A stretch of DNA of 64,000 nucleotides. It comes from Gemmatimonadota bacterium. Lineage in GTDB: Bacteria > Latescibacterota > UBA2968 > UBA8231. The notes beneath the pieces are model-generated. The model made no database searches, was not told the DNA's origin, and worked only from the letters and a program-made list of their open reading frames with translations. Location: assembly GCA_038128265.1 (NCBI GenBank), contig JAYPJE010000008.1, positions 1 to 64,000 on the forward strand. The letters run 5' to 3'. Made by a program: the position numbers and the translations under genes. Below, piece after piece: positions 1 to 5,677 of the stretch (position 1 is the stretch's first letter; each line of letters opens with the position of its first letter).

Positions 1-629
1 TGCGCAACGGACAGTTTTACGGCATGTTTTCCTCGCCGCCGGGCAATCCCACCGATCGCTCCGACGAGTTGGTCGAGCGCTTTCGCGTCATGTTTGGACC
101 CGTGATGGAAGTGGCCGAAGACCTCGATATCAAGGTCTCGCTCGACGTGGCCGTGCGCATGGGGCAGATCGGCTGCAACCCAGAGATGTGGGAAAAAATC
201 CTCGACGCTGTTCCCTCGCCCCACCTCGGTCTGTCCTGCGACCCATCGCACTGGCTGTGGATGGGCATGCTGCCCGTTGAAGACGTTATTCGCGACTTTG
301 CCGGCAAATGGTATTTCGCCGACGTCAAAGACTGCGAGATCAGCGAGCGCATGCGCTACCGCCAGGGCATTATCGGCAACTGGTGGTGGCAGTATCGGGT
401 ACCCGGCCGCGGCCAGCTCAACTGGGCCACCATTATCGGTGCCCTACTCGAATCGGGCTACGGCTATGTGCTATGCGTGGAGAACGAGGACCGCGGCTTT
501 CCCGGCCTCGAGGGCTTTGCCTATGGCTGCAAACACCTGCGCCAGTTCCTGCCGCCCAGGGGCTCCGACTACGCACGCCCGTCACAGCACTGGAAAACGA
601 GCTCGTGGGAGCGACGCACCGACGTCTGA
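1..629 (+). CDS. Sugar phosphate isomerase/epimerase family (xylose isomerase-like TIM barrel), 5'-truncated
   Basis: C-terminal AP_endonuc_2-type motifs: DPSHWLW, DVKDCE, RVPGRGQLNW, GYGYVLCVENED. The frame is probably open past the window edge. Confidence 0.75.
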   Translation, partial: RNGQFYGMFSSPPGNPTDRSDELVERFRVMFGPVMEVAEDLDIKVSLDVAVRMGQIGCNPEMWEKILDAVPSPHLGLSCDPSHWLWMGMLPVEDVIRDFAGKWYFADVKDCEISERMRYRQGIIGNWWWQYRVPGRGQLNWATIIGALLESGYGYVLCVENEDRGFPGLEGFAYGCKHLRQFLPPRGSDYARPSQHWKTSSWERRTDV

Positions 630-633
630 TGGC

Positions 634-661
634 TTGACTTCAGAGCGTATTGCGCTATCCT
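634..661 (+). promoter_or_regulatory. sigma70-like promoter of the glnS leader
   Basis: TTGACT (634-639), N16, TATCCT (656-661), immediately after the upstream stop codon. Confidence 0.55.
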
Positions 662-697
662 TAAGTGCACTGCACGACTGACCCTGAGCCGAGTGAT

Positions 698-757
698 ATG
701 CCCATCCGCCAACAACAGCGACAGCAAGAGCCACTGCCATTATCCGTCGGCGGATAG
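698..757 (+). CDS. Putative Gln-rich attenuator leader peptide MPIRQQQRQQEPLPLSVGG (19 aa)
   Basis: ATG at 698, codons CAA CAA CAG CGA CAG CAA (710-727), TAG at 755-757. Lies between the promoter and a terminator upstream of glnS; SD is weak. Confidence 0.75.
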   Translation: MPIRQQQRQQEPLPLSVGG

Positions 758-789
758 TCCTGTGCACCAGCAAACCACTTTGCAAAACC

Positions 790-825
790 AGCCCGCTGCC
801 GACTCCGCGCAGCGGGTTTTTATTT
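790..825 (+). terminator. Attenuator terminator (3:4 hairpin) in the glnS leader
   Basis: Stem CCCGCTGC (792-799)/GCAGCGGG (809-816) followed by TTTTTATTT (817-825), about 50 nt before the glnS start. Confidence 0.8.
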
Positions 826-877
826 GGCCCGAGCGCGAACCCAGCGTGGAGTCGGCGCGGCTTGTAAACGAGGAACT

Positions 878-2593
878 ATGAGCGACGCAAAAACGGATCG
901 CGGTAGCGAACAAGACGGCACCGAAACAGTGCGCGACTTTCTGCGCGAAGAAATTGACTCCGACCTCCAAAGCCGGCGCTACGACGCCGTCGTAACCCGC
1001 TTTCCTCCCGAGCCTAACGCCTATATGACGATTGGCAACGCCAAGGCCATCTGCATCAACTTTGGCATAGCCGCCGAGTATGGAGGGCGCTGCCACCTGC
1101 GCTTTGACGACACCAATCCAGCGCGCGAGGAGCAGGAGTTCGTCGACGCCATTAAGGAAGATATTCGCTGGCTCGGCTTTGACTGGGGTGAGCACGAGTA
1201 CTACGCCTCGGACTACTTCCCGCAGCTTTACGAATGGGCCGTCGCGCTGATCGAGAAGGGCCTGGCCTACGTAGACGACCAGTCGGCCGACGAAATACGC
1301 GCCAACCGCGGCACGCTCACCGAACCCGGCACCAACAGCCCGCACCGCGAGCGCACGGTCGAGGAAAATCTCGACCTCTTCGAGCGCATGAAAAACGGCG
1401 AGTTTGCCGACGGCGCCAAGGTGCTGCGCGCCAAAATCGACATGGCCTCCGCCAACATCAACCTGCGCGATCCCGTCATGTATCGCATTCTCCACATGCC
1501 TCACCACCGCAGCGGCGACCAGTGGTGCATCTATCCGATGTATGACTGGGCGCACGGCCAGAGCGATTCGCTGGAGGGCATAACCCACTCACTGTGCTCG
1601 TACGAATTTGCCAACAACCGCCCGCTCTACGAATGGTTTATCGAACAGTTGGGCATCTTCCCCTCGCGCCAAATCGAGTTTGCGCGCGGCAATATAACGT
1701 ATACCGCACTGTCTAAACGCTATATTCGCGAGATGATGGAACGGGGCATTATCAGCGACTGGGACGATCCGCGCACCTACACGCTGCGCGGCCTGCGCCG
1801 ACTGGGCTGCCCGCCCGAAGCCGTGCGCCGCTTCTGGCGCGAAGTGGGCGTCGCCAAGCGCGATAACAACATCGACATCGCACTCCTCGAGTACTGCATG
1901 CGCGACCAGCTCAACCGGACGGCGCTGCGCCGCATGGCCGTGCTGCGACCGCTCAAAGTCGTTATTGAAAATTATCCAGAGGGCGAGAGCGAATTGCTCG
2001 AAGCGGTTAACAACCCAGAAGACGAGCGGGCGGGCACGCGCCAGGTGCCCTTTTCGCGCGAGCTCTACATTGAGCGCGAAGACTTTATGGAAGATCCGCC
2101 GCGCAAGTTTTTCCGCCTGGCACCGGGCCGCGAAGTGCGCCTGCGCTACGCCTACTTTATCACCTGCACCGACGTCATAAAAGACGAAAAGGGCGAGGTC
2201 GTCGAGCTGCGCTGCACCTACGACCCGGCCACGCGCGGCGGCGACGCACCCGACGGGCGCAAGGTAAAGGCCACGCTGCACTGGGTCTCCGCCCAGCATG
2301 CCGCCCAGGCGGAAGTGCGCCTCTATGACCGCCTGTTCAAGGTGGAAAACCCGCGTAAATTTCCCGAGGGCGGCAGCATTATCGATAACGTCAACCCCGA
2401 CTCGCTCGAGGTCATTTCGCCGGCGTATCTGGAGCCCGCCCTAACCGAAGCCGCGCCGGGCGACGCCTTCCAATTCGAGCGCATCGGCTATTTTTGCGCC
2501 GACGCCAAAGACCACGAAAGAGAGCACCCAGTATTTAACCGCACGGTCACGCTGCGCGACACCTGGGCACGCGTGCAAAAACAGGGCGCATAA
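878..2593 (+). CDS. glnS: Glutamine--tRNA ligase (divergent HIGH motif)
   Basis: [65 protein letters not shown] at 878 follows GAGGA. Confidence 0.95.
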
Positions 2594-2731: not shown

Positions 2732-4225
2732 CTAAGAGGCGGACGGAGGCTTCTTCCACTCCTTTTCCAGCTTGGTCGCCTTCTTTTTTGACAGCCCACC
2801 CAGCGCGTTCATCGCCTGCAGCAGGCGCATGCGCACGATGTCTTGTCCCAACAGATGCGCGGTGTCAAAAAGCGGCGGGCCGACGCGCGATCCAACTAGC
2901 GCAGCCGTCAGCGGAACCGTTACATCGCGCACCGGCCAGGACCAGTACTCGGCCAGCGAGCGCACGGCCGACTCGATACCTTCGCGGTTCCATTCCAACA
3001 GAGCATCAAACGTCCAAATAGCCGTCTGCAGCATTTCAACTGCCTCTTCTGGTGCCCGCTTTTTGGGCACCAGGTCGTCAGCGACAGGCGCAACTTCGCG
3101 CGCCCAAAAAAACGCCGCCTTGGGCATAAAGTCTCCCAGCGTTTCCATGCGCTGCTGCAGCAGCGGAACGATCTGCCCAACGAATTCGTCGTTGAGCATC
3201 CACGCCTTTAGCTCGTCTAATACCTGCTCTGCCGTGCGCTCTTCGCGCAGATAGCGACCGTTGAGCCAGTTGAGCTTTTCCAGATCGAAAATCGACCCCC
3301 CGAGATTGATCCGGTCGGCATCGAAATGCTCGGTGAGCTGTGCAAAGCTAAACTTCTCCTCTTCTCCCAGCGGTGGGTACGCCATGAGCGCCAGGTAGTT
3401 GAGCAGCGCATCGCTGAGATAGCCCGCACGGCGATAGTACTCGATGGAGGTGGGATTGCGCCGCTTGGACATCTTGGTGCCGTCGGGGTTGAGCAAGAGC
3501 GGCAGGTGCATATACTCGGGCGGCTGCCAGCCAAAAGCCTCGTATAGAACCAGGTGTTTCGGCGTCGAGGTAATCCACTCTTCGCCGCGAATTACGTGCG
3601 TAATGCGCATGTGGTGATCGTCGACAACGGCGGCCAGGTGATAGGTCGGAAAACCGTCCGACTTTAACAGCACCTGGTCATCGGACTGGGCGTATTCCAA
3701 CTCCACGGTGCCGCGCAGGCGGTCGCGCACAACACAGGTGCCTTGCTGAGGCATCTTGAGGCGAATCACGTGTGCCTCGCCGCTGGCTACTCTGCTATCG
3801 ACTTCGTCCTTGGCCAGGTGCATGCAGTGGCGATCGTAGCCCAAACGCTCTCGGTTTTTCGCCTGCTCGGCGCGCAGCGCGCTCAGGCGCTCGGCCGAGC
3901 AAAAGCAGGGATAGGCGTGCCCCGATTCGACCAGTTGGTCGACGTGCTCGCGATACAGTGCCAGGCGCTCGCTCTGGCGATAGGGCCCGTGGGGACCGCC
4001 AATATCCGGCCCCTCATCCCATTCCAATCCGATCCAGCGCAACGACTGTATTAGCGACTCTTCGTACTCTCTGCGCGAACGCGTCTGATCCGTGTCTTCG
4101 ATGCGCAGCACAAACTGCCCACCATACTTCTTGACGTATAGCAGATCGAACAAACCTTGGTAGGCCGTTCCCACGTGAGTGGGCCCCGTCGGCGAGGGCG
4201 CCAGACGCACGCGAACTTCGCTCAT
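2732..4225 (-). CDS. gltX: Glutamate--tRNA ligase
   Basis: RLAPSPTG, HVGT, LRIEDTD, PYRQSER, IRGEEW and KMSKR motifs. Confidence 0.96.
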   Translation of the reverse strand: MSEVRVRLAPSPTGPTHVGTAYQGLFDLLYVKKYGGQFVLRIEDTDQTRSRREYEESLIQSLRWIGLEWDEGPDIGGPHGPYRQSERLALYREHVDQLVESGHAYPCFCSAERLSALRAEQAKNRERLGYDRHCMHLAKDEVDSRVASGEAHVIRLKMPQQGTCVVRDRLRGTVELEYAQSDDQVLLKSDGFPTYHLAAVVDDHHMRITHVIRGEEWITSTPKHLVLYEAFGWQPPEYMHLPLLLNPDGTKMSKRRNPTSIEYYRRAGYLSDALLNYLALMAYPPLGEEEKFSFAQLTEHFDADRINLGGSIFDLEKLNWLNGRYLREERTAEQVLDELKAWMLNDEFVGQIVPLLQQRMETLGDFMPKAAFFWAREVAPVADDLVPKKRAPEEAVEMLQTAIWTFDALLEWNREGIESAVRSLAEYWSWPVRDVTVPLTAALVGSRVGPPLFDTAHLLGQDIVRMRLLQAMNALGGLSKKKATKLEKEWKKPPSAS

Positions 4226-4441
4226 AATCGACTTCCTCTCGAGTGTAAAACCAGCTTAGACAAAGAATTAAAAAGTAAGGAGTTCCACATCAAACGCAAC
4301 GCACCGGGTTTGCATTATTCGTCCCCATACGTCATCTTAAGTGCATAACATGCTGTATGTTCCGCCTCTCGAAGATCGCCGCATCACTCCCATATCAGCG
4401 CCTCCTCGATAGCGACAACGCACCACCACTGAAAGGGTTAT

Positions 4442-5677
4442 ATGCTCTTTAGAGACCTAGACCTACCTGCCGCTGTGCTCAAAGCTCTCGATGAGATGGG
4501 CTACGAGGAGACCACACCTATCCAGGAAAAGACGCTGCCCCACATTTTGGCCGGCAAGGATGTGCTTGGCTTAGCCGAGACGGGCTCGGGCAAAACCAGC
4601 GCCTGCGCCATTCCGCTCGTCTCGAAAATAGACGAGGAAAATCGCGGCATTCAGGTGCTTATTCTCGTTCCCACGCGCGAGTTGGCGCTGCAGTACGTGC
4701 AGGAAGTCGACGAAGTATCCAAACACTCCGGCGTCGTGCCCTTTGCCGTATTTGGCGGATTTGATATGGATATCCAGAAGGCCAAACTCAAGCACGGCGT
4801 GCACATTCTGGTGGCCACGCCCGGACGGCTAATCGACTTGATATGGAATCACCGCCTCGACCTGGAGCAGGTAAAGAGCGTCGTCCTCGACGAAGCCGAT
4901 GAAATGCTCAAAATGGGTTTTATCGAAGACGTCGATTTTATCATGTCCTGCATGATGCAAGAACACCAGACACTGCTATTCTCGGCGACCATGCCCAAAG
5001 AGGTCGAGCGCCTGACGCAGCAGTACCTGCGCGATCCCGAGCGCGTTGAGCTCAACCGCGAGCAGCGCGCGCCGCAGTCGCTCAAACACTATTTCCAGCA
5101 CGTCGGTCGCAACCGCATCGACGCGCTCGTCGAGTACGTCGACGCCAACGACGTCAAACAGGGCATTATCTTTTGCAACTCGCGCGACAAGGCGTCGGAA
5201 CTGCTCAACAGCCTACAAAAGCGCATCCGCTCACTGGAAATTATCCACGGCGGCTTGGACCAAGATCGTCGCACGTCGATTTTTCGCCGCTTTCGCCAGA
5301 AGAAAGTGCGCTTTATGATCGCCACGGACGTAGCGGGCCGCGGACTCGACTTTAGCCACGTAACCCACGTCATCAACTACGACTTCCCGTTCAATCCGGA
5401 AATATACACGCACCGCACGGGGCGGGCCGGACGCATGGGACGCGAGGGAGTGGCCATCACCTTTGTCGGCGATCGCGATCTGACCGAACTCAAGCGCCTT
5501 TTTCGCTCGCATCCCATCGAAGCGCACTGGATCGGCGAGGAGCCCGACCTCGAGGCCGTGCGCGCCAAGCGCAACGGGCGCGGGGGTGGACGTGGGCGCG
5601 GAGGGGGGCGCGGGCGCGGCACCGGACAGCCCCGCGGTCGAAGTGGGAAGGGCAGAAAAGCCGCAGCCAGCACCTAA
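4442..5677 (+). CDS. DEAD-box RNA helicase with RGG-rich C-terminal tail
   Basis: Q motif TPIQ, AETGSGKT, PTRELA, TPGRL, DEAD, SAT, RGLD, HRTGRAGR; tail GRGGGRGRGGGRGRG. Confidence 0.95.
   Translation: MLFRDLDLPAAVLKALDEMGYEETTPIQEKTLPHILAGKDVLGLAETGSGKTSACAIPLVSKIDEENRGIQVLILVPTRELALQYVQEVDEVSKHSGVVPFAVFGGFDMDIQKAKLKHGVHILVATPGRLIDLIWNHRLDLEQVKSVVLDEADEMLKMGFIEDVDFIMSCMMQEHQTLLFSATMPKEVERLTQQYLRDPERVELNREQRAPQSLKHYFQHVGRNRIDALVEYVDANDVKQGIIFCNSRDKASELLNSLQKRIRSLEIIHGGLDQDRRTSIFRRFRQKKVRFMIATDVAGRGLDFSHVTHVINYDFPFNPEIYTHRTGRAGRMGREGVAITFVGDRDLTELKRLFRSHPIEAHWIGEEPDLEAVRAKRNGRGGGRGRGGGRGRGTGQPRGRSGKGRKAAAST

Follow-up and report, generated by a model that had tools for sequence, protein, structure and literature searches.

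A putative glutamine-codon leader-peptide attenuator upstream of glnS in a member of the Latescibacterota

The window analysed here is a stretch of 64,000 nucleotides (nt) from a Gemmatimonadota bacterium that GTDB places in the Latescibacterota (GenBank assembly GCA_038128265.1, contig JAYPJE010000008.1, positions 1 to 64,000 of the forward strand). Near its start lies glnS, the gene for glutamine--tRNA ligase (GlnRS), preceded by a leader in which a short upstream open reading frame (uORF) with a run of glutamine (Gln) codons is followed by an intrinsic terminator. This element is real, and it is conserved in relatives. Based on sequence comparison, and with a probability that we put at roughly 0.8, we suggest that it acts as a leader-peptide (ribosome-mediated) attenuator of transcription, which adjusts glnS to the amount of charged tRNA(Gln) available. 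We infer that the uORF is translated, that transcription terminates near 820-825 and that termination responds to the charging of tRNA(Gln).

The regulated gene, glnS (878..2593, + strand), encodes a protein of 571 amino acids that matches TIGR00440 with 689 bits, against a cut-off of 426. A sigma-70-type promoter for the leader-glnS transcript is found at 634..661 on the + strand, with TTGACT at 634-639, a 16-nt spacer and TATCCT at 656-661, and transcription would start near 668. A promoter scan of the region 400-1100 gave no other promoter-like site on the + strand; the two strands together hold 2 such sites against 0.2 expected from shuffled sequences. The scan gave no promoter-like site in 826-877 either, between the terminator and glnS, and glnS would therefore depend on read-through of the terminator. 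The Shine-Dalgarno sequence of glnS, GAGGA, can be read at 870..874 (+).

The uORF occupies 698..757 on the + strand, about 30 nt after the predicted transcription start. It runs from an ATG at 698 to a TAG at 755-757, and its 19 codons encode MPIRQQQRQQEPLPLSVGG. Codons 5-10 (710..727, +) are the putative sensor codons CAA CAA CAG CGA CAG CAA, that is, five Gln codons (CAA at 710, 713 and 725, CAG at 716 and 722) and one rare Arg codon (CGA at 719). The sole candidate for a ribosome-binding site is a weak GAG about 6 nt upstream of the ATG.

Four segments of the leader can form alternative pairings. Segment 1, ATCCGCC (704..710, +), makes 7 perfect pairs with GGCGGAT at 749-755, with a duplex energy of -14.6 kcal/mol. 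Segment 2, GTCGGCGGAT (746..755, +), overlaps the stop codon of the uORF and can pair with either segment 1 or segment 3. Segment 3 (792..803, +) consists of the terminator 5' arm CCCGCTGC (792-799) and of loop bases that take part in the antiterminator (796-803). The 2:3 pairing joins GTCGGCGG at 746-753 to CTGCCGAC at 796-803 by 8 pairs, one of them G-U. The 3:4 pairing joins the 5' arm to segment 4, GCAGCGGG at 809-816, and is followed by the U tract TTTTTATTT at 817-825, so that 809..825 (+) provides the 3' arm and tail of an intrinsic terminator. The terminator hairpin has a folding energy of -17.8 kcal/mol, and the fold of the leader from 668 to 830 is more stable than those of shuffled sequences (z = -2.69). 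A further stretch in the 5' untranslated region (5'UTR), at 671..692 on the + strand, can pair with 744-768 and does so in the minimum-energy folds of the window. The first-pass annotation of this DNA, a model's reading of the letters alone, had proposed a Gln-codon attenuator here; it had the promoter and the uORF with five Gln in six codons correct to the base, all its coordinates for the three pairings and the U tail match the sequence, and the stop codon does lie on segment 2 in the window, as it had said.

In brief, the proposed mechanism would work as follows. RNA polymerase would start from the promoter at 634-661 near 668, and a ribosome would begin to translate the 19-codon uORF. When Gln-tRNA(Gln) is plentiful, this ribosome would reach the stop codon at 755-757 and cover segment 2; if the ribosome had already gone, the 1:2 helix would re-form. 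Either way the terminator at 792-816 with its U tract would form, and most transcripts would end near 820-825. When Gln-tRNA(Gln) is scarce, the ribosome would stall with one of the Gln codons of 710-727 in its A site, where it would cover segment 1, with segment 2 exposed 12-17 nt past the last of these codons. Segment 2 would then pair with the emerging 5' arm of the terminator, no terminator would form and RNA polymerase would enter glnS. Because GlnRS itself makes Gln-tRNA(Gln), the leader would close a feedback loop on the level of the enzyme and on the glutamine supply. The genome encodes tRNA(Gln) with both CUG and UUG anticodons. It also contains gatB, and no asnS above the cut-off was found in this assembly, which is 84% complete. 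GatCAB probably serves the formation of Asn-tRNA, and Gln-tRNA(Gln) is probably made directly by GlnRS. A contig from an RNA library covers 560-764 and stops at its own end, with other pieces inside glnS; these are uninformative on transcription, transcript ends or transcript level.

The main evidence for an attenuator comes from the upstream regions of related glnS genes. A search for GlnRS in whole genomes of relatives located a glnS match in 72 of the family's 76 genomes. We compared the upstream DNA of 71 of these genes, two of which are truncated by contig ends, and left out one further glnS that is cut at a contig end. We scored as a Gln-run uORF any open reading frame (ORF) 8-45 codons long that has 4 or more Gln within 6 codons, and as a strong terminator-like hairpin one of -16 kcal/mol or stronger. 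That Gln-run uORFs should be conserved upstream of orthologous glnS genes, as implied by the first-pass annotation, is borne out by 9 of the 71 family regions and by 9 contigs of a metagenome collection. The nine family members comprise 5 of the 7 glnS-bearing genomes of the window's genus, the window included, and 4 of the 29 of the neighbouring genus. A strong terminator-like hairpin follows the uORF in all nine. Among the remaining family regions, no Gln-run uORF was found (0/62), and 13 of these show only weaker terminator-like sites. At 12 loci in other families of the class, no such ORF was found. The closest named relatives of the window's GlnRS among the matches listed are Candidatus Latescibacterota and Gemmatimonadota assemblies with 75-77% identity, and none of the 80 matches listed, which are mostly from other phyla, shows 4 or more Gln in 6 codons in any upstream ORF of 6-70 codons.

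The relatives without a leader mostly keep a similar promoter (TTGCC..TATCCT, judged by eye), which lies approximately 30-45 nt before the glnS start codon. The promoter is also conserved in the alignment of the window-type leaders, and the other leader types have versions of the form TTGCC..TATYCT, again by eye. Since leaderless relatives keep the promoter close to glnS, the leader looks like a cassette that may have been gained or lost between promoter and glnS.

A second line of evidence makes no use of the uORF. We scanned for a pattern composed of the end of segment 2, the two terminator arms and the start of the U tract (GCGGA, 30-55 nt, CCCGCTGC, 8-12 nt, GYAGYGGGTTT), which contains no Gln codons. 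In the metagenome collection the pattern occurs 52 times in 51 loci, and 9 of the matches sit 15-63 nt upstream of a GlnRS start as located by tblastn. A Gln-run uORF is present at all 9 of these, 8 of them detected by script and the ninth, locus L169, by inspection; in L169 the uORF stop codon lies 3 nt before segment 2 (MTICQRQRQQQPVP). None of the other matches has one (0/43), and any ORF ending there holds at most 2 Gln in 6 codons. Across 132 genomes of the class the pattern is present in 9, at glnS in 8 of them. The sole match in the class away from glnS is locus L210 (G061:C79:9786-9854).

These scans bear on the view that promoter, uORF and terminator are an independent small gene, for a 19-residue peptide or an RNA of about 155 nt, with incidental read-through into glnS. 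The unit does have its own promoter and terminator, and leader transcripts of other attenuators act in trans according to the available text of two reports (PMC7298713, PMC7968998). Against this, the unit is found only before glnS, apart from the pattern match at L210; the peptide is not conserved outside the Gln run and a C terminus dictated by the RNA; and glnS has no promoter-like site of its own. A role in trans would moreover add to attenuation, not exclude it. We consider a free-standing small gene highly improbable.

In total we collected 18 leader sequences, 9 from the family and 9 from metagenomes, of which 15 are distinct. Three diverged types can be told apart among the 15 leaders, and beyond a few motifs the types align poorly. 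Common to all types are the Gln run, a segment-2 motif that pairs with the terminator 5' arm, and the terminator itself, with a stem that is invariant in the 15 leaders apart from G-U variants. In type A (8 leaders, the window included) the peptide ends in ..GG-stop and the stop codon overlaps or abuts segment 2. The peptide of type B ends in ..RRRFLHW or similar, and that of type C reads M(L/I)QRQQQP...QRKRLCL. Only about 12 nt separate the U tract from the glnS start codon in one leader type.

All 15 leaders contain an in-frame ORF of 14-25 codons that starts with ATG, has at least 4 Gln in 6 codons and stops at or after segment 2. The Gln run is the sole peptide feature shared by the three types, and the conserved C-terminal residues are the translation of an RNA motif, GCGGCGGA or GCAGCGGA. 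Judged from these sequences, the pattern is as would be expected if the codons matter and the peptide does not. The segment-2 motif is a copy of the terminator 3' arm (GCAGCGGG). Nowhere in the upstream part of any of the 15 leaders does segment 3 find a better partner than segment 2 (-11 to -24 kcal/mol), which lies 10-17 nt after the last Gln codon in 14 of the 15. Segment 1 precedes the first Gln codon by 0-6 nt in the 8 window-type leaders.

The Gln run is beyond chance. Gln makes up about 4% of the codons in this genome, and in the whole 4.29-Mb assembly just 8 ORFs that start with ATG and are 8-40 codons long have 4 or more Gln in 6. A terminator-like hairpin follows three of the eight, and the uORF of the window is the only one that is both intergenic and followed by a strong terminator. 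The second of the three is spurious, being antisense within a 643-codon frame, and the third, which heads a gene cluster, looked like a chance occurrence on inspection. A genome-wide screen for terminator-associated uORFs rich in other amino acids was too noisy, with hundreds of spurious frames inside genes.

The codon use within the run is also unusual. CAA accounts for 21% of the Gln codons in the genome and for 35 of the 81 Gln codons in the uORFs of the 15 leaders, an enrichment of the rarer codon. The Arg codon within the run is always CGA, in the window and in the 14 other leaders, and CGA makes up 7% of the Arg codons of the genome. A core of 12 nt, CAG CGA CAG CAA (CAGCGACAGCAA), is kept in 12 of the 15 leaders, synonymous sites included. 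The core contains CAGCG, which is a copy of the motif in the terminator 3' arm.

Conservation at synonymous positions (12 of 15 leaders) is what would be seen if the CAR repeat were read as RNA and not by a ribosome, with a protein such as GlnRS or an Hfq-like protein, or the anticodon of tRNA(Gln), binding the run and shifting the balance between terminator and antiterminator. The ability of the CAGCG copy to pair with the 5' arm would fit such a role as well. Hfq binds A-R-N motifs, and runs of CAA and CAG create A-R-N repeats. The ATG and the in-frame stop at or after segment 2 in 15 of 15 leaders argue for reading by a ribosome. No hfq gene was found in this genome at its completeness of 84%. 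A scan of 500-1000 against Rfam at E <= 10 gave only two chance-level matches, both with E = 9, and none to the T-box, the glnA RNA or the Downstream-peptide motif. Recognition of the run as RNA is in our view quite improbable.

We then considered how far folding agrees with attenuation by a translating ribosome. For the 8 type-A leaders, RNAalifold gave a consensus structure with the 1:2 helix, a short outer helix by the start codon and the terminator; it has 26 pairs, 4 of them with compensatory changes. Types B and C have a 1:2 helix that is weak or lies elsewhere. The complete 8-pair register of 2:3 is found only in the window and its closest relatives, and all type-A leaders share a core of 5-6 pairs, (C)GGCGG with CCGCUG. 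In the alignment the two registers of 2:3 have 81% and 84% of the cells paired, without meaningful covariation. Of the helices described by the first-pass annotation, 1:2 is conserved within type A and the terminator in all 15 leaders, with segment 2 as best partner in every leader; the 8-pair 2:3 helix is not general, and support from covariation is minimal. Support for the helices is positional, not statistical.

Stalled ribosomes were modelled with an assumed footprint of -15 to +12 around the A-site codon, as is usual for a ribosome. With the ribosome placed at the first or the last Gln codon and only the RNA 3' of it folded, segment 4 left out, the 5' arm paired with segment 2 in 15 of 15 leaders. 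In the masked folds of the whole leader in the window, only a stall placed at the first Gln codon gives the antiterminator as the structure of lowest energy. In the unmasked minimum-energy fold of the window, the 5'UTR helix (671-692 with 744-768) takes the place of the 1:2 helix. In the relatives only short GCAC/GUGC-type versions of this helix recur (consensus columns 49-52 with 124-127).

Several observations weigh against attenuation by the simple scheme. In energy, 2:3 does not exceed chance: when the upstream leader of the window is shuffled 300 times, 144 of the shuffled versions pair with segment 3 equally well or better, and in six of the eight window-type leaders 84 to 204 of 300 shuffles match or beat 2:3. 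The helices are almost invariant and covariation support is minimal, although the available text of a survey of Actinobacteria notes a similar invariance for segments with several partners (PMC1262725). In folds that include segment 4, all 15 leaders have the terminator as their lowest-energy structure, even when a ribosome is stalled on them, and read-through must therefore be kinetic. With the A site at 716, 722 or 725, the 5'UTR helix beats 2:3 in the masked folds of the window (-25.6 vs -21.6 kcal/mol); this helix would have to loop out about 50 nt around the stalled ribosome, which in our view is sterically doubtful. The stop codon of types B and C lies 24-33 nt past the start of segment 2, so that a terminating ribosome would not cover segment 2 by simple footprint. 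In these types, termination under Gln-replete conditions would rely on the 1:2 helix re-forming behind the ribosome or on steric hindrance. The uORFs also lack a consistent Shine-Dalgarno sequence, with a GAG or an A-rich stretch at best, compared to GAGGA at glnS.

Another point of this kind is that two relatives from the window's genus, L007 and L008, keep a terminator-like hairpin without a Gln uORF. In these lower-GC relatives (L007:1150-1500 and L008:1150-1500) a perfect hairpin of about 20 bp surrounds a CCCGCYGC..GYRGYGGG core and is followed by a T run. One of the two has a CAGCAG relic, and a new promoter may lie in the AT-rich stretch after the hairpin. Both genomes seem to have lost the attenuator, by replacement or by decay.

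A long hairpin in the same place without a Gln uORF is what a constitutive partial terminator would look like, or one controlled by a signal other than Gln-tRNA, which would lower glnS transcription or stop read-in from the upstream gene while the uORF is no sensor. The chance-level 2:3 pairing and the weak ribosome-binding site of the uORF point the same way. What stands against a terminator of this sort is the perfect co-occurrence of Gln-run ORF and terminator, 9/9 vs 0/62 in the family and 9/9 vs 0/43 in the metagenome matches, as well as the retention, across all three leader types despite their divergence, of a Gln run in frame between an ATG and a stop. The promoter, furthermore, sits between the upstream gene and the leader. 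Weighing both sides, we find a partial terminator without a Gln sensor improbable and prefer the leader-peptide attenuator.

The simple form of that attenuator also has no use for one pairing, that of the Gln run (CAGCG) with the terminator 5' arm at -5.7 to -12.7 kcal/mol. A speculative and rather unlikely extension is that the leader is more than a plain Gln sensor, namely a three-state switch with CGA as a pace-setter. In such a switch, glnS would be off when the uORF is translated with charged tRNA, on through 2:3 when the ribosome is stalled, and partly on through pairing of the run with segment 3 when the uORF is untranslated. CGA is decoded through an inosine-A wobble, and as a pace-setter it would hold the ribosome in the sensing window. 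If true, the three-state switch would protect an essential synthetase gene from the 'superattenuation' known from classical attenuators.

The proposed geometry is familiar. In the trp and his model, the uORF contains segment 1, segment 2 is placed at the uORF end or beyond and pairs with 1 or 3, and 3:4 is an intrinsic terminator; in the trp attenuator the terminator is the more stable structure and the choice is kinetic. The glnS leader appears to share with trpL and hisL the four-segment arrangement, and it has, like them, regulatory codons a ribosome's reach upstream of segment 2 and a more stable terminator that would leave the choice to kinetics. It differs in its target, a single synthetase gene instead of a biosynthetic operon, and types B and C differ further by their stop codon 24-33 nt beyond the start of segment 2, compared to a stop near segment 2 in trpL. 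Well-studied leader-peptide attenuators sense Trp, His, Phe, Leu, Thr, Ile/Val and, more recently, Cys. The pheST leader (pheM) is rich in cognate codons, and its synthetase is induced when its own charged tRNA is scarce.

The pheST leader of Escherichia coli and other gamma-proteobacteria is the nearest known counterpart in being a leader-peptide attenuator before an aminoacyl-tRNA synthetase gene, and it is cited as a known classical attenuator on such a gene in the available part of the actinobacterial survey (PMC1262725). It has Phe codons in place of Gln codons, is gamma-proteobacterial, bears no sequence relation to the glnS leader and lacks the invariant rare CGA inside the run. The same survey predicts classical attenuators before trpS and leuS in Streptomyces by comparative genomics, likewise with a leader peptide, an antiterminator and a terminator before synthetase genes outside the proteobacteria. 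Those predictions concern other amino acids and another phylum, and 'gln' or 'glutamin' has 0 occurrences in the survey text as available, which contains no Gln or glnS case (PMC1262725).

For glnS itself, a terminator and an attenuator have been predicted in the 5'UTR of the Shewanella gene under the label 'tRNA synthetase leader' (PMC2659441, Table 3). The gene is the same, but the portion of that report available to us describes no leader peptide or Gln codons, and the supporting reference of the entry concerns growth-rate control of E. coli glnS (PMC2659441). A survey of premature terminators has 0 occurrences of glnS or glutamine (PMC2965389). No Gln leader peptide with attenuation is described in the literature searched, which lay mostly outside subscription journals, and older print reports are possible; the first-pass annotation had likewise known of no Gln-sensing leader peptide for glnS. 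T-box leaders and glutamine riboswitches are other RNA-leader routes known to sense tRNA charging or glutamine. The leader described here is too short for either and is without specifier-loop/T-box or glnA-type architecture. Most likely, what is new is the Gln specificity and a new lineage within the classical leader-peptide attenuators.

Glutamine is the main signal of nitrogen status in the cell, and a sensor of Gln-tRNA(Gln) charging would, if true, be a new entry to nitrogen and translation control. Classical attenuation would then also extend to an uncultivated lineage. At about 155 nt the element is small, and it is self-contained; its three natural variants and the leaderless relatives with the same promoter could be used as controls.

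Some further features were seen in the upstream regions of the neighbouring genus. One member, L112, has neither a Gln uORF nor a terminator, and carries ATCCGCC and GGCGGAT approximately 95 nt apart in its 250-nt upstream region; these segment 1 and segment 2 sequences may be the relic of a lost leader. Many of L115-L138 have a G+C-rich palindrome of the GTAGGGGGCGGTTTSAAACCGCCCCCTAC type between the upstream gene and the promoter. In several, e.g. L116, L125, L135 and L137, runs of a GGAATTRR repeat are inserted between the upstream gene and the promoter.

Around glnS in the window, an upstream ORF at 3-629 (+), with 208 codons to the window edge, adjoins glnS in many family members and has no NCBIfam match. 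A convergent ORF of 497 codons at 2732-4225 (-) has a weak match to the GlnRS class (E 8e-9) and looks like the glutamyl-tRNA synthetase gene gltX; no Glu-rich uORF was seen in the ORF list for 4226-4441, upstream of this gene. At 4442-5677 (+) there is a 411-codon ORF with a C-terminal tail rich in Arg and Gly (GRGGGRGRGGGRGRG...), the product of which we take, from its motifs, to be a DEAD-box RNA helicase.

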